Assembly (NCBI GenBank): GCA_046563655.1
Contig: CM102287.1
Location: 9,176,001-9,240,000, forward strand
Origin: Yuukianura sp. NJ FZ-2021
Lineage: Eukaryota
Direction of reading: 5' to 3'
DNA length: 64,000 bases
The first letter of the stretch is position 1; every line of letters begins with the position of its first letter. Under the pieces are notes generated by a model. That model did not search any database and had not been told where the DNA came from. It saw nothing but the letters and a program-made list of their open reading frames with translations. The position numbers and the translations under genes were made by a program. This document shows, piece by piece, positions 37,287 through 61,979 of this stretch.

Positions 37287-38136
37287 TCGATAAAAAAAAC
37301 TGGGAACAAAATTTCGATGAAATTGAATATTGATCATATTGAAGTTGAACTTTTTGCAAATTTTGTACTGTGAATTTATTCAGAAATGTGTAACTTACTT
37401 TAATATATTGCAATAAATATAGTAGTTTGTATATTTTTGGAATTGAAGCGTTTAGTATTTATATTTTAAGTGCGGTTTAATAAAATTAAAACTTTTTAAA
37501 TTGAAAATTTACACTTGTAGTTTTCTTAAAACAGTTTTTGTGTTGAAGAAGTTGCTGATTTGTTTTTGTTTTGACTTTTTGTTGTTGTTGACCATGGTTA
37601 GGTTATTTTTATTTTGTGTCGATTGACCTCGTGTTCCATTCTGAGCAACGGTACAAGTCAATTGAGGAACGATGATTAAGATCCAATCTCCCTCCTGAAT
37701 TGAATTGAATCTTCATTGATCCAATTTTTTCAATGGTAATGAAGAGACGTGATCATCGCCCATGGAGTGACAGATCCTGTTATAGAATCAATTGATTCAA
37801 TTCAATTAATTGGATCTTCTTGGCATGTTGAAGCACTTGAGCACCCGACGGAAGGCATTGTCTGAACCCAAACAATCAACTTATATTTAGCACTGCAGGA
37901 TTAATGACATCTCACCAACAGTCACTCAACAAAAGTCACCAGATTAAAAGTTTACGGTATCAAAAATAATAGAGTTGCAGTTGCAGTTTAATTGAGTTGT
38001 TGAAATTTTTTACATTTCTGAAAATTTTCAAGGCTTTCGAACTTTTGCCGTTTCTCTTTTAGAAGGTCAGGTCAGAAGGTCACCAAAATTTCATTCATTT
38101 TGACAGTCACCTGCTTTTTGGAAGTGCATTGATTGG

Positions 38137-41100
38137 TTGAAGGGCACAAGTCCAGTTCCCATGGGGTCCCTTCAAGTACCCACAGTTCTCACACTCTGCT
38201 TTTCTACTTACTACGACAATTCATTCAAATTCAAACAGACTTTGGGCAGAGATGACGATGGAAGAGCCCTTAACGGAACCTCACACCAAAACAACCGAAA
38301 TGGAAATGAACACTTTCAGGACATTTTTAAAGGGCTCCATTTTGCTCCTTTTTCAAAAAAAATTTTTTTTAGAAAACTGTCCTTTTTGGATCCCTTGAGA
38401 AAGTAAGGCTCCACTTTTTTTCAGTTGTACCTTGTTCATTTGTTTGAAGCGAGGTCAAAGGGCCCTTAGCCCTTAGCATGTGTTTGTGGGAAATAACGGA
38501 CCCTTAAGCAGAATTGCTTTGAAATTTCACTCTCAGAAAAAGTGTCACAAGATTTGGGAAAATGATTCATTTTTTACCACTTTCTTCTTTTTAAATGGAA
38601 AACTGTCTAATCCAGATCCACAGACAAGGGTGGGGGCCTTCAAGGGCTCGCTCTGATCCTGTTACGCAAAAAATGGAAGGGGTGAAAGGGTTTCCTTGAA
38701 TTTTGAATTAAGAAATCCCGCTACGAATCCTTGAGAACGGAACAAATCCAACTAAAATTCATCTTTTTGAAAGGAAACACTCAAGTTTCCGTTTTTTCAA
38801 TTTCTGAAAAAAATTGAAATTTGAAGGGCCCAGTTGGTTGACATTGAAAAAGATTTTTTGAAAAAGAGAGCAACAACCTGGAGCCGAAGATTGTTGAATT
38901 TTGAGCGGTTGGATTTAAGCGGATTTGTTTAGTTTTTGGTGCGAAATGAATCCTATTATTTTTGGTTCAAAATTTGAATCCTTAGAAGCAGTGACACCCA
39001 AATGAGCATCTGGGGCCCTTAAGGGTCCCCACTGGAATCGAACCAGTTTTTGGAAAAACAAAACCCCTTTTTCCAGATTTTGGAAAAGTTTGAAAGATGG
39101 ATTTTGTTTAGTGAGATTAGTGAAGAGAGATGAGTGCTAAGAGAGTTGTATTTTGTTAATTTGGTGGTGAGTGTTGCGTCTGTTGGTGACAGGTCAAGGG
39201 TCACCGAGTGACAAATGGAAGAAGATGGGTACTTCAAGTCCACACTTTCTAAGGCTCCACTTTCACAACTAATTCTCCCTTCCAAAACATTTTTAACTGA
39301 ACACAGTGAAACATGAAACGCATTTTAAGCATTCTGGGGAGAAACACAAGCAAATCATCGACAGATTTTTAAAATTTTCTAATTTTGAAAAAAAAATTGG
39401 ATAACATGGGCTAAAAGTTGCGACGGGTCAACGAGGTCATTCACCTCTGTGAACCATCTCACTTAGTTGTTTTGTTGGAGTAATCTGTACTCCACTATGG
39501 GGGATGAACTTTCCCCGACATAATTTTGCATGGAATGAACCCATATCCAATGTATCCATGATTAATTTCAAAATTTCAAACTTAAACTAAACTAAACTTC
39601 AACTTCAAACTAAAATTTCAAAAAAATGAAATACACTTTTTCCCAAAATTTTTGTTTCCAATGTTTTTTGAAATTTTGTTTTCACTGACTTGTGCTGGGG
39701 AAAAGCAAAGTGCGTCTGGGAGTACTTAAGGCACCTGGTCCCTTCATTACCTCCACCGCACCATAAATCATCTTCATCACAACTTACCCAAATTTTTGTA
39801 GAGTGTACTAGGCACGAGAAGATGTTTTTCGGAGCGTACCCTTAAGTCCCCCTAACCCTTTACTTTTGTCTCAAGGGTTAACTTAACCCTCTCAGTAGGT
39901 TTAAGTTCGATTGAGCATAAAATTCATTCTTTTCCTGCGGTTTTTCCTGAGGTGTAAACAAGAGCAAACCACCCACCGCAAAAGCAACTTAATCTTCCAC
40001 CTTTGGTCATTCTAAGGGTCCCCCCGTCACTCTTCAAGGGTCCCCCCAAACAATGAAAACAAAACGCTTTTGCTGCTTCATATCTCAATACATCTTTCAA
40101 CAATTAACTTTCATCTGTACTTTTTCATTCTCAAAATTTCAGCTTGCCTCAACCTCACCTAACTGCTGGAGGCTTCTGTTTGAAAAAATTGAAATTTTGA
40201 AGGTCAAGGGTCAGATGTTGTGTAAATTGTTTTGTTGTTTTTTGGTTTCAAGAGCTGCTCAATTCACTTTTTAGTGATGGATTGATCTGGTTCTGGTGAA
40301 AATGGATCCCTTGAAGGCTCCTCTGTGAGGTCCCTTTGGTGCTGTTTATTTTTCCGATTGTTCTTCACTGTTGTTTTCTCAAGGGATCATCTTCCTATTG
40401 TTGTTGTATTGTTGAGTTGAGAGCATCAAATTATACACGCTTGAACTTGAGCTGACCTTTGGCTAAGATGAACGTGACCTCAGGTATGGAAGGTCAGATT
40501 CCTAGCCTGATTAGGAATTTCGAAAAATTTAAAAATTTGAAATATTTGAAAATTTTGAAATATTTTAAAAGTTCCAGAGAGGAATTTTGCACTTGAGCAC
40601 GTATGGAAATACCTGAGGAATTTTCAGAATTTTCTATTCTTTTTGAAATTTTTGAAAAATTTTGGCTAAATTGAATTTGAATGAGGGTCAAAATTTTTTG
40701 AGGAAGGTCAATTGGCTTGAAAGGTCAATTTTGTTCCGGTCTTTGTTCTGCCATGTTAGTTTTTGTTTAGTTTAGGTTAGTTTTTTCGTTGTTAAGGTTA
40801 TGTTAGGCTAGGCCCGGTGTGTGTGGGCGATTGGAGAGATGAAGATCTCGTCTAAAGTAGTAGTAAATGGGCGGAGTGGTGCGAAGAAGTCGTTTGGATC
40901 ACAGCGCAGGACGCCCAGCAGCGTTTCCGAACAACCGTAACATTCATCTTCCCTAAAATAGGCTATGGAAAAGGGGTAAAAGATCCGAATTTGATAAATA
41001 ATCAATTAAACTACACCAATTTTTCAATCCATTTGTCTCTAAGGGCTCAGGTCACTCAGAAGGTCATCAATTATCCAGGGCCCTTAGACTTCTAGCTGTC

Positions 41101-44100
41101 GAGCTACTAGGTGGCACATCTCACCTCCATGTTTTCAGTCAAAATCTAAGTTTTGTTCACTTATGAAAAAAATGTTGACCTTTGACCTCTATTTTGCTGA
41201 AAGTTGGTCTCAGTATGTAATTTTACACATGCGTTATTTTGATCTCCGATTTAGTCAAATTCGACTTTGTCTCCCACGACTTTTAGTAAAATTCGACTTT
41301 ACGTCAAGTTTGGCTTTTGAATTGAGAATTGGTGAAAACATTTTTTGAAGACATGGCCAAATCGTTTTGGTTTGAGAAATTGTTCAAAAAGTTTTTGACC
41401 TGCGCAACGTTTTTCAAAATTTGACTGCTGCAAAGCTGCATCTTTCGGCTCCAGTTTTTAATCAATTGGTTTCCGTAATTTATTGACGTGGGCGCACCGT
41501 TAAGCCGCAAGGCAGCTGCTGCAAGCTGCGCTTTCGCTTTTCTTGGTAGAACGATTGATTAAAAAGTGATTTCCACGTGTCATGGACCAATTGTTTTTGG
41601 GAGGAAGCAGCGGCAGGATTTGAATGTTGAGGGCCCTTAAGGGCTCTAACGGTTTCCTTGATTTCTCATTCATCTCTGTTAAGTTGTTGAGTTGGTTCCC
41701 TGGACAGTTGAATTAGACTTACACCCTTCACCGTTCCAGCTCCAACGTCCATCGATCAATGACAATGACTCGTCCACAAAGAAGACTTCACTAACCTAAT
41801 CTAACGTAACCTAACGTGGAGATGCTGTCATTGGACGAGCGCATGCGCAGACTGAAGCATCCATTCTCATTAGCACCCTTGTCTGATTAGGCTCTTCAGG
41901 AGATGAAGAGATAACTGCGCACAGTCACGCACGAAAACCATTTGTTTCTCCCTACTGCACTTTATGACGCGTCTCTTATGGGCGATTCGAATGCTAAATG
42001 TATCTTCAGCTGTTTCAAAATTCAAATAAATTTTCAAAATTTTGAAAAAAAAACGAACTTCGAAACTACAAAATTTAAATTTTGCAAACTCGAGGCTTTT
42101 ACCCAAGTGAAACTGAACAGCAGAGTGTATACTTTTAAATGGATTTTCCTGTTTTTGAGTGACTGTTGTTGAAGTTCATTTTAGGAATTAGAGCCAGTAA
42201 CCACCGTAACTATGAAGGTAACCATTTCCAATAGTAACCATCGTAACCATAACGTAACCATTTCGAACACCAGTTGCAAGTGGTTACCGAAATTAATTGG
42301 GTAGCTAAGTACAGGTGGGGTTACCTCAGTTGATGGTTACCTCCAATTAACTTTGTTAATGCTTCACACGAGTCCATATTGCTCATTACCCAAAAAGCCT
42401 TTAATTCTGCAGGGCCCTTCCAAGGGCTCCCTTTTAGTCCATAAATCAATCTTACTCTTACAGTAGTCGCGGCAGCCGGCGCTCCAGGGCCGTCACTTTT
42501 TCCACTTTTCAGAGAAAATTAAGGGCCCCCAAACCGAAATTTAGGAATGCCACAGAAAGTGGAATTCGGAAGAGCCCTTGACGCGTGGGCCCTTAAGCAG
42601 GTGAAGGCATAACGCAGACGTCAAATGTCAACTTTTTTGATCCTTTGACTTTGACAACTGAAATAGCAAAGGGTCACAGTTACATGACTAGAGCTGTTGC
42701 GTTTTTGTGTCACTTCCAGGTCATATGACTGGAGGGTACTTAAGGGCCCATGAAAATTTAGGTCACAATAACTAGATGATTAGAGTTAATGTTAGTAATT
42801 TGGCGTTTGAAGGTGTTGAGTGTAGCGCATCCTTATCACCGCAAGGTGTCAAAAGTCACACTTTTGTTTTTCAGATCAAATATTTGAAAGTGAATAAAAA
42901 TGGAAATGGGGGCCCTTAAGCCAGCTGAAACTGTTAATTTTTTATTGATGCAAAACAGATCCGCTTTTATCTTGCTGGGTGGGTACTTAAGGGCCCATTT
43001 GTTTTCCTAAATGCCTCCTCTTGGTCCACTTTTACTTGAACAATCAAAGTGAACATGACCATTTAAGTTTTTTTGAAAAGTAGAGCAGATGCTTCTTCGT
43101 GTACACTTTGATTAAGTCCCCCCGTCCTGAAACTCGAGATTTTTAAAAGTAAGAGTTAATGTTTACTCGGTTTTACTTTAGTTTTGGCCTAGAGACTTCC
43201 AAGGGCCCCTGGACGAGGAGCCCTTGAAGACTCATGGTCCGGAAGGTAAGTATGAGTACTTGTAGCTGGCTCCAAGGTCACTGGGAATCGATCCCACTAA
43301 GATTCAGAATTGTTGGGCCAAGTGCTTTGTCCCACTTCTGAGGGTCACAATTTTGAGTTCTTAAGGGCACGTGGGTACTTCGGAAAGCAGGTGAAGACTT
43401 TGAATGTTCTAGAACAGATTTTGGACAAGAATAGCATAGGTTTAGAATTCAAGATGAAGCGATTTAAAAATGATGTTCAGCGTTTGACATGTTATTTTCA
43501 AAAGTTGAAGCGTAGGTGAAATGGTCAAAAACAATTTGATCAAAAAGTGAAAAGCTCAAAAAGTCAACGATTTATAAATGGAAAAAATATTTCCATAAAA
43601 CAGGCGAAATATTTAAATATTAAATATTTTTAATCAAAAACCTCAAAATATTTACTTGAATTAAAAGCAAGGGCATGCAAAAATCAATAAATATTTAGTA
43701 ATAAAAAAGGACAAAATATATCCACATAGTGGGCTATGTTAGGCTACTTTCTTTTCATGTTTGGTCTTTTCACTTTTTGACCAAATTGTTGTTGACCATA
43801 TTACATAGAACCAAAATTTCTAAATGGAACTCATTGGAACACATTGCAAATTGTTGTTGAAACTGAGAGTGACAGAGCAGGAAATGGCGGGAACGGTGTG
43901 ATTTTGAACAGTTGAGGACGCCATGTTTGTTATGTTGAGAAAGTAATTGATTAATCACGGTGTTTTGTTTGTGTTGTTGAAGGGTTGTGTTTTGCATTTG
44001 AGTAATTCATAGCGTGACGTGGCAGTTTTAGTTTTCATTAGGAGTGACACGGGATGTGACCAAAGTGACATGGGATGTGGAGAAGTGACATGATGTGATG

Positions 44101-47100
44101 TAAGGTGGGACAAAGGGTGACATGAGCAGAATCATTAAAGGGGTGGGGCCTTCATCGCATCTTCCTAAGTGGCTTGTCACTCACGTCATTGTCACTTAAC
44201 ATGACTCACACAAAGCATTAGTTCTCCATTTAAAGGGGTTGTGAACAAAAAAAATTCTACTCAGTTTAAAAAAACTGAATTCTTTTCAAAACTTTCTTTT
44301 TCAAACTTTCATTTCGGAATGATTTCAGAAAATGTCGTGCTTCAGTCAAAAGAATCTGCAAAAATTTTGGAGAGGGAAATAACAAAATTTTGCGATTTTT
44401 ACGCTTGGTTGTGAATCTCCTCAGCGTTTTAGGTTATAAACCCAGTTAGCCTAATCTAACTAGGCTGAGAGTTAGGCTAGGTTAAGATTAGGTTAGGAAA
44501 ATGATGTTTTTGTGCATGTCTGAGCAGAAGGTTGAGATTTTTGATAAGCGTGGACCAAGATCTCAAGTGATAAGTGGCTTCACACCTTCAATAGCCACGA
44601 ACAGATCAGAATAGAAGATGTTTGATCTGTATCTGCTCACACAGAATGGCAAAACTGTCCGCCTTCTCTTCTCCGTTGACAAATTGGATCCTACAATTTT
44701 CAGGTCAAAGGTCACGTTCCATCTGTCGTACTTTCAAACCAAGATTTTGAAATTTCGCGGGAGGCAGATGCTAGATCAGGCTAAAGTGAACGAGATTTCA
44801 ATTTTGTACAGCATGAACAAAAATTTTCATCACAAAAATCGGTTTCGAAAAACAGAAATTTTGACCTTTGACCTTGACATTCCTGATCTTAGAGTTTTTT
44901 TTCACCTGTTTCAATAAAAGGTGCGGTCCAGAATCTAATCTTGGATTTCGGATTGAATTTTTCACCTGGAAGAAGCTTGCTGTGTAGGAGGATAAAAATT
45001 CCAAAGTTTTTTGAACAAACAGCGATTGATTCACAAAAGTTGTGGAAGTGACAAGGGGGGACTTAAAGGGTACCCAGAAGCATGACGAACTGGAACATCA
45101 CAAAGGGACATACAGATCATCCTCATCCTAAAGAAAGCCGAAACAATTTTTCAGCATTTTTTAGACAATTTCTAAAAAAGCTTTTAAAAACGTTCATTTT
45201 TCAATTTCAAATTCCGTTCAGGTTCTTTGCGTTTCCAATGATGCAAAACTAAGGGTACCTCGAGTGAAAGGGTTCCGACTCAAAATGGTGGAATTGGATT
45301 ATTGGAAGTTGGGTGCAAAGGGCTCATGGGCCCTTAAAATGAAAAACGAAGGAAAGAAAGGGTTTCCGTTTCTTGTGTAATCAAAAGCTGAAACGGATAT
45401 CTTCATTTGGTTTGTTGCGGTAAGCGGTAGAGCTAGCGGTATTTCTTGTTTGAAATTTAAAAAAAAAACAGGTTCAACAAATTTCCTTTTCAGTTAACCG
45501 CTAATTCTTTAGGAAGCGGAGATATTTTTTGAAAAGTGTTTGACCTTCCGCTTCTACGGTTTTTTAAATTTTAAAACACTTTAAAAAAAAGTTTTAGAAT
45601 TGATCCATCTGCGGTCTGTACAAACAAAACCGCGGAGCTTTTCAAAATCTTTAGAATTTAAATGCCGAAGAAATTTTGAAAGGAAGCGCAGGAGAACATG
45701 TTTTAAATATTCTCAGTTCTGACGTCGAAACTTGTGTTATATCATGGTACACGAGTTTTGTTTGATTTCTGACATTTTTTTCAGATTTTGAAAAAATTTT
45801 CAAAATTTTGAATTTTGGTTTGAGTGAAAGTAGCAAAAAGTGTTCGGCTTGTCTAAACAAACTGTACACTAGAAGCTACCCTCCCAAGAAGCGAATCGAA
45901 TCCGAAAATTTACAACCATAAAAACGGAAAAGGTCACCAAAAACTGCTCTTTTGAAATTTTCTGAAAATTTGGATTTTTTTTCGAAAATGGTGAAATTTC
46001 GTAACGACCTTAACAGGACAATGGTGTGGTACAGAAATAGAAAAACCTGTGTTGGGAAATGACAGATTGAAAATAGGCTTTACGAACCACAGTACGTAAA
46101 ACTCCCACCGCCCCACACGTGTCGTTCACACCGTGAAAATACCCGCCTACTTAAAACCATAAGGCTTAACACTGTTACTGCGTCCCATGAAAAATGAAAA
46201 TTGGACATTTCAAAAAGATTCCAAAATTTTGAGAAAAACATTTTCACTAAAAAAGGACTTTTCATTCAGTTTATGTGACTTTTGAAAGATTTAAGCCGGA
46301 ACTCCCCTACATTTTGTGCTTTACTGATTTTTTAAACAAAGTTTAGCTCGAACAATTTTTAAAATGACGCAACAATTTCACTTCTTTTTCAAAGCCGATT
46401 TGAAAACGACGCGTGTCGAAACTAACGTATGCCGCAGTTGCAACACATGAAGGGCTTACTTTTGTTTTCCACGCTGTCAAGTGACCTTTGTGTCACCTTT
46501 TGCTCTCATATGAGGTATCTTTTTGTATAAACATGATCTGAAGGGAATCACAGTGACAAGGACGAAGGGAACATTCTGATGACTTAAATCTCAATATTCC
46601 AAGTACCCCCTAGAATAAGGGGGGACTTGAAAATGAATGGAGACGAATGACCTTTGGCCAGGTGAAGTGACTCAATCACCCCACATCAACAACCCCTGCT
46701 CTCAAGGTCACCCATTGTCACTGTTAAGGGTCCCCCTTGGACAACTCCCTCATGTGACCCCTGTGCCAAAGTACCCCCTTCATGTGTCCATTTGAACACA
46801 ACAACAAAGAGCCGCTTCCTCCAAGCAACAAAGGAGGAAACCCGCTTTCTAGAAAACAAAGGCCGTGTTCAAATGAACGCAAAATGAGTTTCACGTGCTG
46901 CAAAGGGAGAAATTGTTTTTGAAAATCCAGGTGAATACAAACTCAATTGTGCTTGAGTCATATTATGAAACACAAACAAAGGTCAAGGCATTTGGATTCA
47001 ATTTTGCTCAAGAGGTCAGAGGTCAAACCATTCCAATTCTACTATGGTTTTATAAAAAAAAAAGTTATTACTTTATAAAAATAGTTATTTATAATTATAA

Positions 47101-50100
47101 TTATTATAAATTACTATTTTTATATTAAAAATAAACAACATGCAAATAAAACGTGAACAATAGTCAGGGTCAAGCTCAGGAAACTGTCGTTTAAGATTTG
47201 TGAATTTTTAGACGAAGCTTGGAAAATTTAATTGTCGTTGAAATAGTACATTGAAAACTCAAAACGAAAACCAAATTCTAGCGGTTTGTTTGACACGTTC
47301 AAAGATTTTGATTTGAGCTGAGAATGGACGGCTTATGAAAAGCAGCTTTATTTAATTTTCATTTTTTAAAACGTTTTTTTTAATAAAATCTGTTTGAACA
47401 AGAGCAACCTGATTTGAAAGAGCGGGAAGATTTAAGAAATGGTCTTTTGGCTTAACCTTTGCTTCTGTTTGCTCAGTAGAAGAGTTAAGGTCACAATTAA
47501 ATTCTGAGGATTTAAAATTCCCGCCATCAAAAGAAGCCTTCAAAAGATCCGAATTTGAATTTGGTCTTTGGAGCAACGATGTGATCTGCTTCCAGGTATG
47601 CAGATAGGGGATGATCGTGAGGATCCACTTCCTCCGAGTCTTTAGTCTTCTGCGCATGTGACATGAGTGGAGACTGATTAAGGGCCCATGACCCCTTTGA
47701 AACATGACACAATGAAGGGCACTCGTTTTCCATTGGGCAATGAGCATAAATCACAATGGGAAAATGATGAAAAAGGCTAATTTTGTATGCAGGACCATGA
47801 TCTGGAAGCTCCTAAACATTCAAACATAAAAATCAACAAAAGTAGAACACACCAAAGACTCAGAACAGGAAGCTTTTCCCACGAACTTCAAAATGGCAAA
47901 CCCTTTTGAATTTTCCCTCCGAGTGAGTCATAATTTTGAAAAAGTGGTCACTGCGGATATTACTGGTGGATTGGACGCACTAACGCTTACTCAAGGAACA
48001 AAATTTGTAAATAATGATTTTAAAATGAATTGGAACATGCGTTTCGACCTTGCGTTTCAATTTTCTACACTTTTCTAAATCACGACTGCGGAAGTTATAT
48101 TCAAAATTTTCATGAGCAACTTAAGAAAAAAATTTCTTATGAAATAAAATTTCGACGAAATGTTGAAGGAAGTTGTCCGAAAAATGAGAAAGCAAAAACC
48201 TGATTTGAAAAAATTCCATTTTTATGTAGGTAAGAATTATAAATAATTTGTGAATTATTCAGTAGTTCTTAGAAAATAAATTTAATACCCCAATTGTATA
48301 AATTATCCTAAATTTCGAAATTGCAGAATTCGGAAAACTGGTTTCTAAGATAAACATTTTCGATTTTTGTGTGATTCTCAAAAAAAATTCCTGCATTTGT
48401 TACTCACTTCACTCATGCATCCGAAATTTCAAATTTTCAATCTGTAGAATTATAGGATCCTTGCACGAGATTGATCTGTAAATTTGCAGTTTTATTATTT
48501 AAAAAAATTTGAATAAAAAGTGACAAGTTGACAAATTGCACAACTGACTCCAAATTTTTGGAATAAAAAGTTTCTAATGCTCATTGCATTCTCACTGAAA
48601 GAAAAAGTTGAAATGAAGGGCCCATTGTCCCTTAAAGGAACAGATCAGCCCAGGTTCAAATTTCTGATTTGTAGCCATTTGATATTAAAGGTAATTCGAG
48701 TCAGTTTCAATTTCAAATTCAAATCTAACAATCGAAAAGCAATTTGAAATCAATTCGCCAATCAGAAACTTTGTTACAAAAGTTTTTTTTAAAGTTTCAT
48801 AACTTTTTGGAAACACATGTCCCCTTAAGGGCGACCTAGGGATGGGCCCTTGTAGTTTATGATCTGAAACTGGAAAAGGAACCTGGTCACCAGAAGTCAC
48901 TATCACGCCCCCTCATCATTGTAATTGCACGAGCTGAAAAGTTAAGCTCCAATTTTCAAAATTTTAAAATTTCCAAATTCCATTTCCAATTGGATTGGGC
49001 CTTAAGTACGTGCCTCTTCAATTAAAAGCCTAATTAAACAGGAAGGGGGCGGGGGCCCTTGACCTTAATTAAGAGAAAAACAATCATCATTGACCCCTTA
49101 AGTGGGTGTCACTTCCACTTCCAATAAATCAATCACTAACACCTTCCACTTTCTTCTCTTCCTTTCCTCCAATTACACGTGCGATGTAAAATGCTTTTCA
49201 ATTCAAGAATCAAATTACACTCGAAACATTACAGCGGATAGTGCTGCCCCTAGACAACGTGGAAACTGGTACTGCGTCAAATTTTTAGTCTCTTTTTTTA
49301 AGAAAAAGTTTCACCGACATCAATTTGTGATATGCGACCTCTGACACTCTAGTTGACCTAGGTCAACATTCTTGAAATTATGAAAACCACAGGACGGGGT
49401 TAAAAATCAACTACAGACAGATCTCATCTGATTCAAATCATCCCTTCATCCCCTTGTTCTCTCTCATCGTTCAAATCATAATTTATGCACAACACAACAA
49501 TTGATATGTGAGCATACATGTGTACTCGGGATCAAATTGAATTTAGACCCCTTAAGGGCCCTCCTCTGTCGATGTCACGCACCTCTGCACTTGATGCATC
49601 TCACACATTGGACATTTAAACCAAATCTCACTCGGATCTTCATCACAACAAAAACTAAGCAAAGGAGGAACACAAATTATGAATTCAGAAATGTATCTTT
49701 CATCTCCCTTCAAGGAACACAGAAGCGCCAAAGGAAAACTACTTTTGGAAAAATCTACTTCCAAAACACATCCTCATTTTAATATTTCAAATTTTAATTC
49801 TAAAAAGTTCATTTTTTGTGTTTAAAATTCCATTTGTTGAGACTCACCCCTTCGTTCCAAGAAGAAAGAAAACTGGAAATGGAAATCTCTATTCTTATTC
49901 TTCCGGGTTTTTTGCCAAGTGCCCTTTCACCCTTCGCAGGAAAAAATTCGTGTTTTGGTTTCAGAATTTACACAAGGAGGGCCCTTAAAAGTGGATTTCA
50001 ATTCAAATGTTTAGAAAATCTAAAACAGAAATTATGCACAAGAAAATCCAGTTTGAGCACAGTGGATTCAGCACCTTCCGCATTTAAATTACTCCGCTTT

Positions 50101-53100
50101 TGTCCCAGATCCAGATGCGAATCAAGGTGCCCTTGCATTTACTTGTTTTTTAAAGTCCCCCTTCTAAGGGGTCACTCGGGATCCCTTGAATCTGTTCTAA
50201 AAAGAAGGAATTTGGCCAAACAAAGACAGGAAGATGCGAAGGGATCCGGAGTTTATGGCCATAATTTTTTGAATTACTTTTTGAAAAAGTTCTTTTGAAA
50301 TGATGAACTCCCATTTTTAAAAATCTCGATTTTAAAAAAGGAACAATTGAACAAAGTCAGTGTTTGGTGAAGGGTTGGAGGGGGCTCGAAGGCACTCCAA
50401 CAAAACAGGAGGTTCAACCTGAGAATATTTTCAAAATCCGAAAACTTAATCGGGCAGGTACGATTTTTTAGAAAAGCCTTTCTTTGATTTTGTTCAAACA
50501 GACTTTGGAAGAGGATTTGAAAAAGTGCTCAAAATCAACAACACAAGAGACACTTTTGATCAGATTTAGAAAAGCTGAAGATGAAAATATTTTTCTAAAC
50601 AGAATTTGATTGTGTTTCTTTCTAGAACTCTTTGGATCATTCAACGTTTGATTAGTAATTGAAATATTTTCGAAACAAAGTTTCAATCTTTCTTGTATCA
50701 TCTACAAACCCAAAATTCATTTCAATTTTCAAACCTTCAAAGTCACAGAATCTTTCGGAAAATATTTAAATAAATTGTGAGAGACATTTTGCAGTTGATC
50801 TTGATCAAGAAGTAGGTAATGCATAAGCGACCAAATGTAAATGCCAGAATGGAACTTTTTTTTCATAACTCATTTTTTTTTCTTTTTTTAATTTCCAAAT
50901 TAAACTTCAGTGTTCAGTCTTCAGTGTGTGAATTTGAAATGTGAACTGCTGAGGCTATGCAAATAAAAAGTGGAGCGTTTTGATTTCTGTAGTTGACAAA
51001 CAAAATAATTTTTTTTACTTAAAACCGGTTTAGGTTTCAAAATCTGAACACGGCAGCAGTAAGCACTTCCCAAAAAAATGTGAAATGGAGAAGTTCGGTC
51101 AGTAGTGTTGAAACTTCGGAATTGAATGCTGACAGATCTCTGTTTAGAAAAAAGTAAAGATAAACGTTTGCTCTTTTTTTTCAAAATTTGATACGTTGAA
51201 CGTTAGATTTCGAAATGGTAGCACCTCCTTTTGTCAAAATTTGAAGCTGCAGCAGAAAGCGTTTGCTTAAGAAATTTTGAAAGTTGGTTGTATTCAATTT
51301 TTCATTTTGAGTTTCAGTGGGCACGCGACAAGAAATCTTTTGGTCTGAATGGAAAAACAGAAAGAAAAATGCTTGAAAGCAGCATCTGCTTCTGACTGAA
51401 ATTTCAAGAGATTTCACAAGAGAAAATCCAATCCAGGTGGAATTTGTGGTGCAGCAGAAGCAGAGAGGCAGTTGGAAGCTGCAGCACAAAGATCGCTTCC
51501 TCCAGTGACCTCGATTAAAGTCACACGTCACCCAGACACACTAAACACAGGATTAATCAACACTGGAACAAGAGATTAATTAACACTTGCTAATTACTTG
51601 AAGATGACGTGGGCAGGTGACCTGCTTCTGTTTTCAAAAGCACTTCAATACATTGGCGTCGTTTAATCTTCAATCCAGAGATCAAATTCTGGATATTTCC
51701 AGTCAATCACACTCAGAAAAATCCTGATCTTGTTTTTGTTTTTTCTGGAGGTGACTCTTGTTGATCCTCGTCACAGATTTTGATGAATCGATTTTGAACT
51801 TTGGCCTTCGACAAGTCAAACAAACAAGAATTTATTCTTTTCTTCTCCAACTGTCAATGACGCAAGAATGGATTTTTGTTTGACTTTTCATTATGAAAAC
51901 TAAAATGACTCCACTTTTCTTGTCAAAGTGTTCATAATTGCTACACTGAATAGAGTCTGCGTGTGTCGATTGATTGGATAAAGCACACCTTACGCAGAAC
52001 TTACTTTGAGTAAATAGTCGATTCGATGCGTTAGTAGCCATTAGCGTCACTTTAAAAAGATGGACAGCGTCGATTTGAAATTTTTTGGAGCAATGTTTCA
52101 TCCGTTCGAGCATTGACGATTTCATTTGCATCGGAAGCGACAAAGATTGAAAATTATCCATTGCCGGGAAGCGTGTCACTTTGAGAGGGGGAAATTTGAA
52201 TCCTGTGAGACATGACAGTGTCGATTTCCTTTGAATTACAATGGAAAACGATTAGTTTCCATTGAAAAGGGAGATTCCAGGTGAATCTATGATTAATTAT
52301 TGTGGATCACCCTGTACAATGTCCAAACACTTTCCACCTAAACAGTAGCTGTGGCGGCCCTTAAGTGTCCTTTGTGACCCTTAATCCCCCTCCAGGTCAC
52401 TTCGGCAGTCGTCGGTGTGTTCTGAGTGTTGAAGTGACAATTAAGTGTGATTAGGATCATAATTCTGGCTGTCACCCACTTGTCACACCCAGAACTGACA
52501 CTCTGGACACCCAAGTGACGCTTTTCACTTGGAATTCAGATGAACCCTTTAAGGGTACTTTAAATGTGGAGCACATGGATTAAGCCGTGGATTTTCCTTT
52601 TGAAGGGATTGATGACACCTATTTTTGTCATTTTGAATAACTCTCCTCCGCTGAAAAATATTTCGGATCTTGGATTTTCAGGGAAAGTGAACTTCAGTTG
52701 CACAAAATGAACAGGGAGAGGAAGGTTTTGTTTTAAATGAATAAATTTTATTAGGTTTTAAATTAATTTAGAAACTTCGGAACTTCGCGTGGGTTAATTT
52801 AAAAACTGAGTCAGTTGCTGTTTTGCGGAAGCGGGAGTTTTTAAATTCCTGGAGTCACCTGTACTATACCATAAGGCCCCACTTCCGCTTCCTCCATTAA
52901 GGGGTCACTGGGCAGCAGCAGAGGCCCTTAAGGGTCCGTGGCTGTCATGGTTGCGTGCCTCCAAGAACTCACCTGCACAAGACACTCCGCTTCCTCTAAC
53001 TTTCACTCCACTCAACTTCCGACTCTAAATCAGGCGGCACCAGGAAGAATTTCAAAAAACCAACCGACAAAACATCCAAAAATTAAACACAAAGTTTGAC

Positions 53101-56100
53101 GCCGTTTGCAAAAATTCATTTCATAAGGATCAGAGAGAACCACTACAGTTTTGTCAGGTTGCAGGAATTGTACGTATCGACCACAAAATGTGACCTTTGA
53201 CGTTTGGCACTTGTTTTGAAATTGTGTGGCCATGTGTGGCACAGCTTCCGAAGAATCTTCTTAAAAAGAGAACCGATGTATCAAAAATGACACCAACATC
53301 CATAAAAGTCCACAACTTTTTAAACTTTTTAAAACCCTAAAAAAAGTGCCCACTGGAAAATGAATTTTTGAAATCCAAAACCTCGTCTTAAAAATCATTC
53401 ATTAAGCAGCTAACAGCCGCTCGAAAATCCATTCACGAAAACACTCGACTTCTCAAGACGCTAAACATCAGATAGCTCATGGCAAATTGTGTCTTTTTGC
53501 TATACGAAGCTCTGTTACCCAAGTCAGTCGTTGCTAAAAATGCCAGCTTCTGGATTTTTAGAAAAAGTGGTCCAGTTTTCAAAATTAAAAATTCAACGGA
53601 AGAAAGTTTCCCAAGCTCCGTGTGACGCAACTGTGTCGTGATCTGTTTGAATTTCTAAAGACTTGCATTGCATAATTTTAAATTTCCGTTCCTTATTCAC
53701 TCCATTTTTTGCTCCCTTTCAAAAACTTGCTCCACTTTTTTCAACTGTTGCGGCAGGTTCTGAATTTGATCCTTTGAAAGTGTGAGACTTAAAAATCCCC
53801 ATCTCATTAGGAAGCGGATTTGGAAATGCAGAGGAAGAGGAGCCTTGACTGGGAGAAGCAGGGCCCTTAAGGGTCCCACTCTGCAGAATTAATTCCATCC
53901 CACCGATTCCTCCTCACCTGTGGCTCCTATTCCATTCACAAACTGAATCCCAGTGGCTAAGGTTGCAGGAAGACAATGGATCCAAAAGTGCCTGGACAGG
54001 GGGACTCAGATTCCAAGGGCCCTTGAGACCCTGCAGTTTTACAATGAAAACGAAAGGGCATCTCTCTCTTCAAGAAAAGAAAAACTACTCCACCGTTTAC
54101 GCTTCACAGAACATTCTCAATCAAAATCCGAAAAATCGTGGGGAACACATTTCAAAAAACAATCTTCATCAAAGTTAAAATGATGTAACCTGCTGCCGTT
54201 CAAAAAATATGCTTCTGTTGGCAGAGTGTTTAATTTTGAATCGTAGATGCCTCCAACTCCATGTCGAACAAGCAAACAAGTATTTTCTATTTTGAAACAA
54301 ACTTTTACTTTTTCAAAAACAAAATATCGAGGCCAGCATATCCTGGATATGAAAGATCAAATTTTTGTTAGGATTTGATGTTTGAAAGAAAACGAAAGCA
54401 CAGGATGAAGTTTTTTGAAATCAAAACATGAAGGAACCATTGACCCACTTCAAAGCGTCCCTTGACCTAATTTAACGTGTATAACAAATGAACAAACATA
54501 AAAAAGACAAACACGACCAAGTAAAATATTACAAATTCAAAAATTGACAAAATTATTTAACCAGACAAGATATTTCAAAGTTCCGATTTTCAAATTTTGT
54601 TCTACTGGGCGTGTCACGGGATACTGAATAATTCAAACACTTTTTATTTAAAAATGACGAAGCATGAGACTCCATTTGTCGCTGGATTGAATTTCCCCAG
54701 AGAGTGTCCGAGTGGGTTCTAATGAACTATGTCTGCAAATTAATTAAAAGCTCATCGGATCTACGCCCAATTCCACTCCCCACTTCCTCAACCTAATCGT
54801 TAGGCTAAGCCTTAATGGCCTAACCACCTTCCATTCCCACCAACTACTCCCGTAGCCAATCAGAAATCACCCTCTGCCCCACCACATGGCACCCACCAGC
54901 CCCACCAACTCACTCATCCACTGCAGAAACAACCTATAAATTGCGAGGCTCAATTTGAGAGGGAGTAAGACACAGAGATGCTCAGGAGATGATTTGTCAC
55001 TTCCGGAGCAGAGGGCCCTTGGAGGAGCAGGGCCCTTCAAGGGTGCTTGCCATAAGGTCACACACTCCACTCTCAAATGAACACAAATTAACCCCTTTAA
55101 CCCTTTGACTCTAACCACACTCTCTAACAAGATTCTGGATGAAGATCTTAAATGAAATAAGAAACATTTCAAGAAAATTGTAGTTAGCGACTGAATTGTA
55201 TAATAATTATTTTAGTTTATTCAAATGAAATAGACTTTACAAAAATATTTAAAAGCGGAAGCACGTGTGGAGAAAGTAGGTTTGAATTTAGAAGGAAGTG
55301 GCTTCTACTTCTGATTGTTTGTGGAACCAAACACTCAGAATCCAACACACAAAAGTATACACATCTGGAACCAACTGCTCAAACACTTCCTGCGCAGAAG
55401 TAAACAACACTCCAAACACACTGCCACAATCCACCAATCACAACAGTCACAAGCATTTGACCTCTCACTATGTCCAGTCAACATCAATCAAAGTCCCACC
55501 GAACCTCATTACACTTCTCACTCTGACACAAAGCCCCACCCACCCTTGCCCCACCACACTCCAAACGATCCGCCAAGTCACAACACTCCGATTCATTCCA
55601 AAATCACATCAAACGATGCAACACACACAGAATTCCCTCCAACAAACGCTTCACTTTGTTTGAATTTTGCATCAAAGATGCCCGATTCCCGCCTTCTGCT
55701 GGTCACTCTTCCGTTTCATTTGCTTTTCTCTTGTGAATGAAGTTGCGTCTTCAATTCCGAACTTTCTCCGCCCACTTGCGGTTTCTCCCTTTCCGCCCAT
55801 TTCATAAAATTTCAATTCCTCAACAGTTTTTACATTGACCAAACAAAAATGAAATTTCGAAGTTGCGTGTAGCATTGTGTCGCCCGAGTGTCACTTTGGT
55901 TGAGGAAATCCGAAACTGAAGATGCAGAAATGAATGAGGAATTATTCCGTTGGGTGACCCTCAAACGGGACACTTCCACCACAATTCAAAACATCCAAAA
56001 GAAAATAGTCTATGCACAGTGACACAAAAACTAAAGATCACCCGCTGTTTTGAATCATAAAACCAAAATTGAAAATGGACACCTCACGGATACACATTAC

Positions 56101-59100
56101 TCTCCAAATTTAATTTTTACAGATTGTAAAAACCTTTGTGTAGTTAAATTAATTTGGTGAGAAATTATTATTAGCATTTCTTCAGTTGAAAACTCACAGC
56201 GGGGAAACCAATTTTATGTTTTCACACTTTTCAAAATCATGGTTCGATTTTCTAAAATTTTGTTCTCGGAAAAATCAAGGTCAAAGTTAATAAGGACCGT
56301 CACACTTTTCACGGTGCACAAAATTTATAAAATCAAAAATTGCACGTCAACATCTCAACCTTCTATTCTTTTGCAAGGTCAAGTCAGAGGTCACTTGCTC
56401 TCGTTTTGCAAAATTTAAAACCATTTCAGCGTGCCTTTTAAACGCCAAATTTGGTCAAAGATTGAACTTTGATAATAAAAAACAGGTTTTTAAAGTCTAA
56501 CGGCTCGCTCCAGTTCTTTTGTGGTTAAGTGGTTGATCATTGGGCTTCTGCTTCAACCGACTTTAAATTGAGTCTGTCCGTTTGGCATCTGGATGGAAGG
56601 GTCCTTGGGCCCTTAAGGGCCTTGGTCGTGTGGAGGAAGTGTGATTGGTGGCCTTGGGCATTGTTGTGGCCAGTGCTCTGCAACCTGTTGCTGGACAAGG
56701 GAAGTGACTCGAGGCACCTTGCTCCAAGTGCTCCTGGTTTCCTGCTGCCGCAGGATGAACACTTTGTATCTCCCAACTGTTTCCAAAAACAACACAACAG
56801 TCTCCCAAATGTCAAAAAAACAAGACGTGTTTTAAATTTTAAATTTCCTGAATTTTGCGTCCAACTCCTTGCGTCATTTCCTGCGTATAACGTAACCTTG
56901 TTTTTAAATTTTGTTTGTAAAAATTCATATTTTTAAAAGATTCTTGTTATTTTTTCTTGTTATTTCTGTTGATGATGAAATCGTGACCTCTGCTGTGCAT
57001 ATCGCAAGAAATGGAGAGACAATGGACTTGGACCAAGCAGGAATCGATCTCTTTGCAATTGTTATTTTCCCAAATCCGGAACTCCTATTATTCTGTTCAT
57101 CTTGGAAAGTGGATCTCCTGAGGATTGAATCTCCATTTAGAAAGGTCAAACAACCAGAGCAGGAGGTCACCAAACAATCAAATCCAATCTACATCCATTC
57201 AATCTTCATCTAAAGAGTTGTCAAGTTTCAGCTTTCTTTTCAATTTGCAAAAACAATCATTTTAGTATACTCTCCCTTCAATCGGCGAAAGTTAAGTGGT
57301 TTCCACTTGCATTGACATTTTGCAATTTGCGAATGAAATGATCTTTGGTGCCTTAGTTGGATACAGGTCTGCACCTTCAGAAATTTGCACAGTTATTGCA
57401 AAAAATTTGTGCAATTTCTGCCAAAATCCACTTGAAATGATTTTTCAATTAAGAGCAGGTGATTACTACTTCAAAATTCACCTGTACTTTTTAATAACGT
57501 AATTTTTGTAAAGTGCAGATGAACTCAAAATAAAAGCAGCGATAGAAGATACTTCACTTGAAACAAAGTTGCACTAAAACTGAACTTTGACACAATCTAA
57601 TCAGTTTTATCGACAATTTTTAATTAGTTTTTACAGGTGAAATGAACCATGACCTCAATGCGAGCAATGCCCAGTGCAAAAAATTTTGAAAATACTTTAA
57701 AACCAAAAATTCAAGAATTAACTGGTTTTTTGGTTTCTTTTGCGTTTGCCGAGTTTTTTTATGTTTGAAGTTTGACGTTTGAGTTTGGATTTTTAAATTC
57801 TAGCAATAGCAAATCACATTTCAGAATTCAAGAAAAACCCTGGCAGAAGAACCTAACTGGACGCAACTCTCGGTTGGATTTTTTAGAATTCCTGAGGAAT
57901 GTTGTGTGGAATCGAATTTTGAAGCGGATTGTTGAAAGCTTCGAAAAGCATAAAATGTGGTAAAAGGGTGTCAAAATGTCGTAAAAATCAATCTCCCAAC
58001 ACCCGCACTTTGCTCATCTGTTCACAAAGTTTACAGCTCCTGAAATGTCACGTTTACGCTACCGAAATGTCGCCATTTGAAGCACGGCGGAAACATAAAA
58101 AAATTCAAAGTTTTAAAACGACCGAGTAGCAGCTTAAGCCGGATTTTCCACAATTTTGAAAAATTCATAAACTTTGTTTCCAGAATTTAAACAAAAAAAG
58201 CAAAATGCCAAAAAACTAAAAATTAGTTGAATGCCAACTGCTTATTTTTGAATGTTAACTTTTCTATTGTAAAAACTGCTGGCAGATGATGATCTTCCAA
58301 CGAGGAAATTTCAACTTGAAATTTTCAAGTTTCGAAATTGCAATTGTGAAATTTTTGTTCAAAAATAGATTCTTTTTGAAAACCGGTGATGTTTGAAATT
58401 TTACCTCTGTTGTTGTGATGATTGATTGTTTTTGGTTGGTGTGTTGGATCTGTCAATTGGACACTTTCAAAATGACTTCATCTTTCCAAAACTTTTTCTT
58501 CTCAAAAACTGCAAGAACATCGTAAAATTTTGTGTGAAAGACTTGAAGGATGGCTTTATGTGTTGTGGTTAAAACTGTTTTTGAAAAACCTGCAGCAAAA
58601 GATCTTTTCAAAAGTTGAAAACTTCTTTTTCAAAAGAACTAAAATTCAAAAACACACACAAAACGCTCGCGGTTTTATTTTTGTTGCAAAACCACTTTTC
58701 CGAAATCACAAGGTGAGTAATGCAACAAATGGTTTCACAGATGACAGCAAGGAATCGTAAAATTCGACTTAACATTTCTCTCGTTTTAGAACTTCTCAAA
58801 GTCGTAAATTTTTGAAACATTTTTGCAATTCTTTTGCTAAATCTCAAAAGAATTCAAAAAGATCAAATCGAAATAGAATTAGAATTCTTTTTCTCACAAA
58901 GAAAAGCATCTCGGTTTACAAAAGAAAAAAAAAGCCGTTGTATGAAAATAATCTTGTCACGGATCGAAAAAATGGTTTAAATTTTCCGTCGTGACCTCAG
59001 TTGACCTGAATCAATTTGAAATTTCAAGACTTCCTGTGACACGACTCAAGCAGATGAACAGCAGACAAGTGAATTCTGAAGCTCAAAGTTCAAAATTTTG

Positions 59101-61970
59101 AATACTTTATCATAATTTGTCAAAATTTTGAAAACATCAAAGTTTATGATCCGCAGAGGTCACGTGAACAGATAAACAGGTTAACTGAATTTGCAAAATC
59201 AGATCAACACGAAATTTGAAACTTCAAAAATGCACTTTTTAGCACCTAGGTGTAAATTGCTCTTGGAATCACAATATCCCATTACGGTTTTGAAATTTTG
59301 AAAAGTCATTTGACCTTTGACCTCTTCTGGTTCGAACTGTAAAACGACTTGAACTAGATTTCTCTATTTTTATGGGCTGAAAAACATGCGTGTGTCAAAA
59401 AATCATGACAGAACAATAATTACTGTAATTTTTTGCACTTTGCCCGGAGTGACTGCCAGCGTCTGCGCAGAGCAAAGTGTCCAATTGTGCTTTTTTATTT
59501 CCTAGACTAACGGTAAGTGTCATCCCATTGTGATTTGACTGTATTTCGACTTGTCATGCCTAACAATAGACATTTAAGATCTCTCTTCTGTCAAGATCTG
59601 TAGTAAAACAAGGCAATAACAACAAATAATCACGGAACATTTGAATTTGAACGAATTCTGGTGCCATTTTTTGAAAAGCGTTGATTGTCGTCACTTGTTT
59701 ATGGTCAGGTCACGGGGTCACGCATTGATTCAGTTGACCCAGAAGTAACATACGTTTGAGGCGAATTTTTATAGTGTTGAATCCTATTATGAAAAAGTAG
59801 ATCACAAAAAGCCAAAGATTTTGAAAATTTTAAAAAAAATTCGTTTTTTTTTAAATTCCGAAGAAGAGACATAACTTGAAACTCCAAGAATTTCAGAACT
59901 TCGCTGGCTGCATGCAACATTTGTGGTTTTAAATTACTTTTAAAACTAAGATTTTATCAAAAAACGGAAATTTTTTGAGAAAAATGTTAGTTTTGAACAC
60001 ATTTTTTCTCCTTTTTTAAAAAAGTGCTCCAGATCTGATTGGGATCGTTTTGTTGTCATTATGTTCTTTGCGGTTTGTTTGTGGCTCGGATTCCCCTTTG
60101 TTTTCAAAACTTTTTGAAAATGGTTGTGGTTGCCGCCAGAATTGAAAAGTGAAATCTGGAATTTTGGAAGAAGCTTTTGGAAACATTTCAGATTTTGAAC
60201 TTTTTCTTTAAAAGATAAAAACATCTTCAGTCCATCATCAAACAGACCGAAAGCACTATGATCACCCTCTCCTCAGTCAAATCTTCAACTGAAAACCAAT
60301 ATCCAAACAGTGAACTTTTTCTTAAAAACTTTAAAAAAGTTCAGATCTTCCCTAAAAACAGATTATGAACAGTTCGTACGCTTCATTTCACTCAAAACCT
60401 GCCGCTTTTTTTCAAACAATCATTTCACTATCGACGGAGGGTGGAGAAACCATGTGTAACTTTTTAAAAAGTTAAAAAACATTGAAAAGAAAGCATACAA
60501 AAGATGTTTTGAAATCAGGGAGGGTGTGCTTTCTGTTACCGTAAAAATCCTCTTATAGAAGCGTTGCCAATTCTACACAATTTCGAAATTCGGAGCCGTT
60601 AGAAGCTTTTTGAAAAGTTAGGCATTGCGTTTTGTTGTGAAAGTGCAGGTGATTCCAAGCATTGATGAATGCTGAATAGATGCTGGCAGTATTTTTGGTT
60701 GGGATGCTGCAGCAGCTGGACCTTTGACTTTTCATCTCCTGGATTTGTACAGAGTGGATCGAATGCATAGGCAGAAATCATGTTCTGAAGGACGACACTT
60801 TATTCCATGAGCATTTTGAGTGTGACAATGGACGTTGCGAGGGAGACGCGAGTGGAAGTGGCCCTTGAGGGCCCAGGGCTCGCGCCAGGTCGATGCTGGT
60901 CGCGCGAGCTAAGGGCCCTCCCCACCCCCGGTTCAATTGAAATGCTGGGAAGAATGGGGCAGAGGGGCGGGGAAGAGGCAGTGATTGGAAGGGAGAAGCA
61001 GCTGCCGAGTAACGCAATGCAGAACAAATAAAACCCGGGAGATTCAAAGATCTTTGGCTTCATCCCCGAAATTCCGGACTGTGCTTTGAGCCAAGGACTT
61101 AAGGGCCTGGTGTTTGGCGGAAGCCTTAGGAGGGGGCCCTTCAATAGAGTCCCTCCGCCACAAGCTACTTGCACAACAAAACGCAAAGTTGGCAAAGTGC
61201 AACGGTCAAAAAATCACTAATTTTGAATCCCCCTAAAATTAGGGGAGGGGTCCCTTAGCATCAAAATTTCAAAAAAAAAAACAGCATTTTTCTTTCACCG
61301 AAAAACTTTAGAAGGGACGCGTTTAGGAAAAAACTGAAATGCTGAACTGATGTTAGAATTTATTGTACAGTAAAAGTAACTTGCTTCTTATAAATATTCA
61401 TGTGTACCCTTAAGGGCCCTCAATTACTGAAAATGAAGATGTGATTTTTTAAACATAATCAACATCTTTCCCTTACTGCTTTAGCTTTTGTAGTTAAAGG
61501 GTTCTTCGGTTAGTTTTTGTGTCGTTGTCAACATGATTTTGACGATTCTTTTTTACTTTTAAGGGCTCCAGGAGCCCTTGAGTTTTTCCAGAGTTAAATG
61601 CCTCCGAAATTTCGGTTTTTAAACATCCTCACCTGTTCGGGGGGTGAGTGACAGGAGGGCAAGTGAAGGCTAGGTTAGGCTCCTCCTTCTTTTTTCGTTG
61701 GTTCAACGGAAGCTTAAGGGGTCCCTTAAGGTTAAGCGAAGTACCCTCTCCCCCCTGTTCCGAGGCCCTTTAAACCGAAAGTGTTTGAAAGAAGCTCCAC
61801 TTCAAAAGTTCCACTCTCGGATTGAAACCAGTCAGCTCTCGAACTTCTCAAATCATTTGCTCAGTCGAGGCGAACCAGATCAGACGTGCTTTTGCAAAGA
61901 AGTCTTATTTGTCCAGAACAATAACATAACAAAACAAGTTTAAAAGTGACCAGTGACCCTTAAGTACCCC
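38137..61970. promoter_or_regulatory. About 24-kb gene-free putative cis-regulatory domain between the two snail paralogs
   Basis: No credible ORFs. GC-richer islands carry dozens of TTAAG(G/T)NYCC / GGRNMCTTAA motifs, about 20 CAGGTG E-boxes, Su(H)-type sites and DR1 elements. Confidence 0.7.
61853..61887 (+). promoter_or_regulatory. Inr + DPE core promoter of snail copy 2
   Basis: TCATTT (TCAKTY Inr, +1 = 61855) with AGACG (RGWYV DPE) exactly at +28 to +32 (61882-61886), 125 bp upstream of ATG 61980. Confidence 0.7.
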
Positions 61971-61979
61971 TCAGGTCAA

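Follow-up and report, generated by a model that had tools for sequence, protein, structure and literature searches.

Homotypic clusters of transcription factor (TF) binding sites in developmental landscapes are a concept that comes from Drosophila cis-regulation. Here we analyse a 64,000-bp stretch of Yuukianura sp. NJ FZ-2021 (assembly GCA_046563655.1, contig CM102287.1, positions 9,176,001 to 9,240,000 of the forward strand; hereafter the window, numbered from 1), in which a short palindromic motif, TTAA between GGGCCC arms, saturates the DNA between two tandem genes of the Snail family, a family of key switches of mesoderm, neural precursors and the epithelial-mesenchymal transition. We refer to this intergenic tract as the domain and to the left part of the window as the control. 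As in a homotypic cluster, one short word is present in excess, in either orientation, in kilobase-sized non-coding blocks near a developmental TF gene and in the company of other enhancer-type words; the difference is that about 100 sites are spread here over a whole 25-kb intergenic region and not over one enhancer. On balance, we consider it probable that the motif forms a homotypic cluster of binding sites for a putative, probably homodimeric DNA-binding protein, filling the landscape of the duplicated Snail locus.

The closest described design is that of the BEN-solo factors Insensitive and Elba of Drosophila. According to the available text of PMC4281564, homodimers of these factors bind the palindrome TCCAATTGGA, their sites in vivo are often half-palindromic, and the factors are repressors and insulator proteins. 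These sites combine CC-W4-GG with extended arms, are read by homodimers and in many cases are imperfect or reduced to one half, as are those of our motif. If the motif had a repressor or boundary function of this kind, its domain-wide spread would be in keeping; the likeness is one of design only. Our motif differs in its central tetrad, which is TTAA and not AATT, and in its GGGCCC arms.

A second comparison is offered by human THAP1, whose THABS site carries the invariant TxxxGGCA. As described in the accessible part of PMC2879526, THAP fingers make base contacts across the invariant core and additional contacts in the minor groove, and different THAP fingers may read specific sequences of their own. 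The motif word TAAGGGCC fits T-xxx-GGC, but the last invariant base fails, with TAAGGGCA found once in the domain and TAAGGGCC 21 times. Finally, loop-seq modelling has predicted a most cyclizable 50-mer, in which short A+T-rich segments alternate periodically with G+C-rich tracts of 5-6 bp (Table 1 in the part of PMC13238741, 2026, that was available). There, as in the motif, A+T segments alternate with GGGCCC-type tracts; in that 50-mer, however, the alternation is continuous over 50 bp, whereas the motif units here stand alone, without phase, in otherwise ordinary sequence.

Excess of the motif in the Snail intergenic DNA

Our counts confirm that the dense excess of the motif between the two Snail genes is real and far above chance. 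For the word GGGCCCTTAAG, allowing up to one mismatch, the window contains 33 copies where 0.44 would be expected; no copy lies before position 36,994, 27 lie in 38,137-61,970 and six fall within the two Snail coding regions. The 16-mer GGGCCCTTAAGGGCCC, at up to three mismatches, is found 14 times (0.01 expected), 12 times in the domain and twice in Snail coding regions, while CTTAAGGG counts 32 on both strands together, against 1.39 expected from dinucleotide shuffles. For the literal pattern TYAAGKNYCC there are 42 matches in the window (4.25 expected; none of 100 shuffles reaches 42), distributed as 33 in 38,137-61,970, five in 1-35 kb and four in the two Snail coding regions. The first-pass annotation of this DNA had spoken of roughly 60 or more instances in the domain, which is too many for the literal pattern and too few for the motif family, with its 112 half-sites (see below).

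The 7-mer GCCCTTA/TAAGGGC is absent from 1-35,900 and present 28 times in 37,300-62,800. To compare non-coding DNA only, we removed open reading frames (ORFs) of at least 100 amino acids together with a tandem satellite, which leaves 18,208 bp of control and 18,879 bp of domain. In this masked DNA, GCCCTTA counts 0 vs 19 and CCCTT 13 vs 97 (here and below, control vs domain). Since unrelated G+C-rich hexamers are not enriched (CCCGGG 1 vs 1, GGCGCC 1 vs 0, GAGCTC 3 vs 0), the enrichment of the motif is not driven by composition.

The left 36 kb of the window is gene-dense, encoding a rhodopsin-type receptor, a Cys-loop channel, an ankyrin protein, DHX37, Nup35 and others. The control includes the promoters of at least seven other genes, and no intergenic tract in the control half is longer than a few kb. 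Its lack of GCCCTTA thus indicates that the word is not general to introns, short spacers or promoters here. As the control holds no long intergenic tract, an effect of the Snail locus is not distinguishable in this comparison from one of long intergenic DNA in general. The main rival to a cluster of binding sites is accordingly a dispersed word of the whole species, common in all long intergenic or "desert" DNA through a general architectural or insulator protein or through mutational bias. The domain is the only long intergenic tract in the window, and the window ends inside Snail-2, with the right-hand extent of the motif beyond view; should the word prove common throughout the long intergenic DNA of the genome, what remains would be a species-wide sequence signature. 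Against this stand the zero count in the 18.2 kb of neighbouring introns, short spacers and promoters and the avoidance of A+T-rich spacers within the domain (no site in 57,001-60,000), which argues against a uniform mutational process. We regard a species-wide word as unlikely, though it deserves serious consideration.

Extent of the domain and clustering of the sites

The motif domain is the entire intergenic DNA between the two tandem Snail-family genes. It starts about 850 bp past the Snail-1 stop codon, and its last site (61957-61969) ends 10 bp ahead of the inferred Snail-2 start codon at 61980. No motif is found in the 1.1 kb upstream of Snail-1 or in the first intron of either gene. 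Across 25 kb, the half-site density is about 4.4 per kb; the sites are gathered into four clusters (38.1-43.4, 45.3-50.0, 52.4-56.6 and 60.9-62.0 kb) with A+T-richer stretches between them (Table 1). The variance-to-mean ratio in 500-bp bins is 2.9, and site density correlates with G+C content (r = 0.64).

Other words are also over-represented in these blocks. CAGGTG, which we take to be the E-box of Snail-family and basic helix-loop-helix proteins, counts 3 vs 20, corresponding to an 8-fold higher density in the domain, and 17 of the 20 copies read CAGGTGA. With this identity, the excess would suggest auto- or cross-regulation by Snail. In addition, GACAATGG and AGGAAGCG, presumably Sox and ETS sites, occur seven times each in the domain, against 0.6 and 0.4 expected. 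The clustering of the motif in G+C-richer blocks, together with the excess of these E-box, Sox and ETS words, makes the domain resemble enhancer DNA.

Half-sites, dimers and strand symmetry

In an alignment of all GCCCTT instances, the information is carried by only some 11 positions (G-G/R-G-C-C-C-T-T-A/G-A-G), and the columns on either side stay close to background. We used an iterated relaxed matrix, G-R-G-C-C-C-T-T-R-A-G, to call half-sites in 37,300-62,800. It finds 112 half-sites, compared to a mean of 12.2 and a maximum of 17 in 50 first-order Markov simulations. The half-sites agree most in the columns C6 (99%), T7 (97%), T8 (92%), C5 (88%) and G1 (87%). The half-sites use both strands equally (57 plus, 55 minus), as expected if duplex DNA is recognised.

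The half-sites also combine in a preferred manner. Fourteen pairs stand back to back exactly on TTAA, with three further pairs separated by a 1-bp spacer, and seven pairs have a GGGCCC in common, an overlap that costs little because GGGCCC is its own complement; every other spacing is seen at most twice. At most 48 of the 112 half-sites take part in any dimer. The spacing counts therefore describe one favoured dimer geometry and many lone half-sites. All of the dimers listed in the first-pass annotation were recovered, at 39013, 53861, 41631, 42734, 42981, 56607, 61404 and 61713, and likewise the AAGGGCCCTT type at about 38458 and at 54015.

Two variants of the half-site are worth recording. 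An arm reading GGGTAC recurs as GGGTACTT, found ten times against 0.5 expected. The NK-2-type word TYAAGTG is 2.6-fold enriched (7 vs 14), and its copies are mostly variant half-sites.

Another reading is an RNA or single-strand element, in which GGGCCC-UUAA-GGGCCC hairpins would form in a plus-strand transcript running towards Snail-2. We compared the pairing of the two strands in 13 of the 14 full sites, leaving out the Snail-2 coding copy and allowing G-U pairs. The plus strand pairs better in eight sites and the minus strand in three, with two ties, but this difference is not significant (sign test, two-sided p ~0.2). No Rfam match lies in the domain, and lone half-sites, which are the majority, are unable to fold. 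With most half-sites outside any pair and no bias between the strands, the RNA reading is the less likely one, and we give it hardly any weight at all.

Relation to repeats, coding sequence and known RNAs

We assessed whether the sites belong to copied DNA. In a self-BLAST of the window, the only repeat within the domain is a 40-bp inverted pair at 43521/43799. The 80-bp flanks of 22 strong loci, compared with their cores masked and with physically overlapping windows set aside, share matches of at most 13 nt, no more than is shared around 22 random loci. The earlier statement that the flanks are unrelated is thus borne out by both comparisons, as is the conclusion that the sites are not one transposon, given that similarity ends at the 11-bp core. 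With unrelated flanks the sites do not form a repeat family, and a short information core in unrelated flanks is the signature of a selected short site and not of copied DNA.

A relic origin can be phrased in two ways: the sites might be the termini of a TTAA-targeting miniature inverted-repeat transposable element (MITE) with GGGCCC ends, or the remains of a decayed (AAGGGCCCTT)n satellite. A TTAA core between inverted GGGCCC resembles in form a TTAA target with a transposon end on each side, and there is one two-unit 7-bp stutter, GCCCTTA GCCCTTA, at about 38462-38475. Yet similarity stops at the core, the domain contains no tandem array of the motif unit, and neutral decay would not hold C6 and T7 at 97-99% while randomising the flanks. 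Contig depth points the same way, as it is flat outside an unrelated MITE-like element. Contigs from four public runs span all 30 bins of 42,001-62,000, and in one of these runs (X1) the summed contig depth lies between 242 and 727 in 28 of the 30 bins, with an outlier of 8,666 in the bin of the inverted-repeat element; as summed contig depth is not a copy number, this flatness is only a weak hint. Taken together, these data make repeat relics very improbable.

The MITE-like element itself (43521-43799) is about 280 bp long with 40-bp terminal inverted repeats of 90% identity, and its ends are unrelated to the motif. The summed depth of its bin is more than 10-fold that of its neighbours (bins at 43.3-44.0 kb), and many contigs join across it.

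Other classes of sequence were likewise rejected for the domain. None of the eight tested ORFs of at least 120 amino acids has a Pfam match, which argues against a coding sequence, and the domain contains neither a tRNA, as a tRNA-derived element would require, nor a match to a known RNA family in Rfam.

DNA mechanics and nucleosome positioning

The 10-bp period of the motif consensus had suggested a sequence-encoded nucleosome code to the first-pass annotation. In that form, the proposal finds no support in the window. The motif units are isolated, 10-16 bp long and thus at most 1.5 helical turns; WW/SS autocorrelation at lags 10, 11, 20 and 21 and spectral power at 10-11 bp do not exceed those of three control regions; and neighbouring sites are not helically phased (Rayleigh p 0.56, 0.20, 0.05 and 0.25 for periods of 10, 10.2, 10.5 and 11). 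Without a 10-bp WW/SS periodicity, a tandem array or helical phasing, a nucleosome code is unsupported.

Put as a rival to the binding-site reading, the idea is that the motif acts through mechanics rather than through reading by a protein, as bendable "hinges" that would set the rotational position of nucleosomes or ease looping. Its physical premise has published backing, since three 10-mers of the motif, GGGCCCTTAA, TTAAGGGCCC and AAGGGCCCTT, are substrings of the predicted most cyclizable 50-mer, as given in the available part of PMC13238741. Inter-site distances also show a bump at 150-175 bp, with 28 pairs compared to about 14 per 25-bp bin; however, this excess of ~3.7 standard deviations is confined to a single bin and does not reach significance once all 32 bins are corrected for. 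The isolated, unphased units and the control-level WW/SS signal speak against this rival. Moreover, any W4/S6 mixture should suffice for a mechanical role, yet TTAA and GGGCCC are specific: the general CCWWWWGG counts only 7 vs 14 but CCTTAAGG 0 vs 9, indicating that TTAA in particular is required. Mechanics alone is therefore a poor candidate in our judgement, and it ranks, with repeat relics and RNA hairpins, as less likely than the species-wide word.

Candidate binders

We then asked whether the motif corresponds to the site of a known factor. We counted consensus words, those of THAP1 and BEN-solo coming from the available text of PMC2879526 and PMC4281564, respectively. For these two, counts do not support the likeness of design described above: the THAP1 word TNNNGGCA is not enriched (38 vs 26), and the BEN-solo words count 0 vs 1 (CCAATTGG) and 3 vs 0 (CCAATAAG). 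Among the remaining words, no enrichment is seen for Zelda (0 vs 0), Pho (12 vs 4), Dorsal (0 vs 0), FTZ-F1 (9 vs 5), CArG (1 vs 1) or EBF (0 vs 0), and the words of Su(H), Kruppel and Ci are absent or not enriched. For AP-2, the spacings GCC-N3-GGC, GCC-N4-GGC and GCC-N5-GGC give 2 vs 2, 0 vs 1 and 1 vs 1; the spacing of the motif itself, GCC-N6-GGC, gives 2 vs 5.

The Polycomb response elements of Drosophila are marked by words for Pho (GCCAT) and GAF (GAGAG). An element of this type was rejected for the domain, with GCCATHWY at 12 vs 4, GAGAGAG at 2 vs 2 and GAGAG at 35 vs 39. The lack of Pho and GAF clusters does not exclude a lineage-specific Polycomb recruiter.

We also searched the full-text literature. 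With the exact 10- to 12-mers, all of the matches listed look incidental, as judged by title and the start of the abstract, except for the cyclizability paper (PMC13238741), whose available part is discussed above. With 8-mers combined with binding-site words, none of the matches listed concerns a metazoan factor. Neither set of listed papers yields a TF whose site matches the motif.

A putative dimeric factor at the Snail locus

In the binding-site reading, the domain would be the cis-regulatory landscape of the tandem Snail pair, lying downstream of the first copy and upstream of the second, and the motif would be read by a single sequence-specific DNA-binding protein. In full, the site would be the 16-bp palindrome whose two halves, GGGCCCTT and AAGGGCCC, meet at the axis, a two-fold symmetry that implies a homodimer. 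Each subunit would read about 8-11 bp, with most of the information in CCCTT and the outer G, and the lone half-sites may serve as lower-affinity monomer sites or as cooperative sites. About 100 sites per 25 kb, in four G+C-richer clusters, would keep local occupancy by the factor high across the landscape, and the factor may influence every enhancer of the locus simultaneously, either as a shared activator or repressor input or as a protein that bridges or compacts the locus. The counts, the anatomy and strand symmetry of the sites, their separateness from repeats and their gene context are direct results of the analysis; protein binding, the dimer state and the effect of binding are what we infer.

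A factor site had been the other proposal of the first-pass annotation, and it agrees with all of the tests applied here. In its favour, the motif is restricted to the domain, position-specific and strand-symmetric, and TTAA dimers are in excess; the Pho, GAF and Zelda words that were named with it are not enriched. The factor may be a pioneer, a Polycomb recruiter or an architectural protein.

Several observations weigh against a cluster of binding sites. Among the consensus words counted, none is both matched by the motif and enriched; CAGGTG shows enrichment but is distinct from the motif. None of the 14 full 16-mer sites is a perfect copy. A density of this order seems high for ordinary enhancer input. 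Finally, "locus-specific" really means here that the motif is absent from the compact, housekeeping-type DNA next door.

A bolder version of the binding-site reading is a locus-wide "address and hinge" code, in which the motif would be at once the target of a lineage-specific dimer and a highly bendable word, and bridged loops would fold the 25 kb into a hub that couples the Snail paralogues. We hold this to be improbable; if true, the regulatory domain would be defined by its sequence, with no need for boundary elements.

If the sites of the putative homodimer are bound, they would offer an unusually clean handle on a regulator of the Snail family in a poorly studied, arthropod-like lineage, and a long, specific, palindromic site with about 100 copies would be an ideal bait to find its binder. 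If the factor is architectural or recruits a silencer, one dispersed word could mark an entire regulatory domain. In addition, because it shares words with the most cyclizable DNA, the domain lends itself to asking whether gene regulation makes use of DNA mechanics.

Gene context and other features of the window

The ORF at 36,000-37,286 encodes a zinc-finger protein of the Snail/Escargot family, whose finger region shares 78-88% identity with Snail proteins of arthropods; the named full-length matches are from arthropods, with 40-51% identity across 63-95% of the query. The ORF of Snail-2 begins at 62,834 and has C2H2 matches in Pfam. The last 929-930 bp of the two genes (36304-37233 in Snail-1, 63072-64000 in Snail-2) are 99.4% identical, whereas divergence is seen in the first exons, the introns and the 5' coding parts. 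Such a pattern suggests that the zinc-finger half underwent gene conversion or that part of the gene was duplicated very recently. The coordinates of the genes, the domain and its clusters are collected in Table 1.

Table 1 Features of the Snail intergenic domain and of the genes that border it (window coordinates).
Feature	Position	Strand	Remarks
Snail-1 gene	35566..37286	+	Inferred exon 1 ATG 35566 (MILEVK...); exon 2 ~36141 to stop 37286, C2H2 fingers; splice sites inferred
Motif-saturated intergenic domain between Snail-1 and Snail-2	38137..61970	.	33 literal TYAAGKNYCC matches; 27 GGGCCCTTAAG matches (up to one mismatch); ~112 matrix half-sites in 37,300-62,800
Densest cluster	38137..43370		5-12 matrix sites per 1-kb bin (38,001-44,000); palindromes at 38634, 39013, 41631, 42734, 42981
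Full TTAA-centred example	39013..39028		One mismatch to the 16-bp palindrome; same 16-mer again at 53861-53876
Second cluster	45328..49989		Full palindrome at 49546
Motif-poor spacer, A+T-richer	50300..52000		0-2 matrix sites per kb
Third cluster	52355..56622		Full palindromes at 52355 (weak), 52922, 53861, 56607
Motif-free A+T-rich spacer	56700..60800		0 matrix sites in 57,001-60,000; G+C 0.32-0.35
Cluster adjoining the Snail-2 promoter or 5' leader	60859..61970		Full palindromes at 60859, 61404
Snail-2 gene	61980..64000	+	Inferred exon 1 ATG 61980 (MILEMK...); exon 2 ~62912 to window end

In Snail-2, a run of four G at about 63871-63874 replaces the five G of Snail-1 (about 37103-37107). The reading frame shifts after ...HLRTHTG, which removes the last fingers from the translation; this frameshift is either real, making Snail-2 a pseudogene, or a homopolymer error of the assembly.

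A near-copy of the 16-bp palindrome, with two mismatches, lies inside the Snail coding DNA at 37083-37098 and 63851-63866. It encodes the finger-linker GHLRT, whose Leu and Arg codons are chosen such that they create the CTTAAGG core, and it is probably a coincidence.

Four DNA sequencing runs contain the stretch, with no RNA run listed beside them, and a run that bears a second organism label has 36% of the sampled words. In 42,001-62,000, among the variants listed (42 of 1,250 positions with substitutions and 12 of 380 with insertions or deletions), no substitution falls in a strong site; only about 0.5 would be expected, too few to bear on conservation. We also scanned metagenome contigs with the Snail protein; the five loci obtained are all distant zinc-finger matches (26-47% identity) and include no orthologous locus.

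Among the control genes, the best named matches of the Nup35 ORF reach only 35-38% identity and come from beetles and a bryozoan; within this ORF lies a 66-bp tandem pair of 91% identity (33522-33668). The satellite masked above occupies 10551-12902, between two control-region genes, with about 18 copies of a unit of ~131 bp at 96-99% identity. The control also contains a local tandem duplication at 21419-21612 (84-89% identity) and an assembly gap of 100 N at 27389-27488. Finally, words of the TTTCAAAA/TTTTGAAA type occur 71 times in the domain against 25.8 expected, and ATTTTGAA occurs 24 times in 1-35,000 and 43 times in 38,137-61,970; together these look like a separate A+T-rich word that is spread across the whole window.

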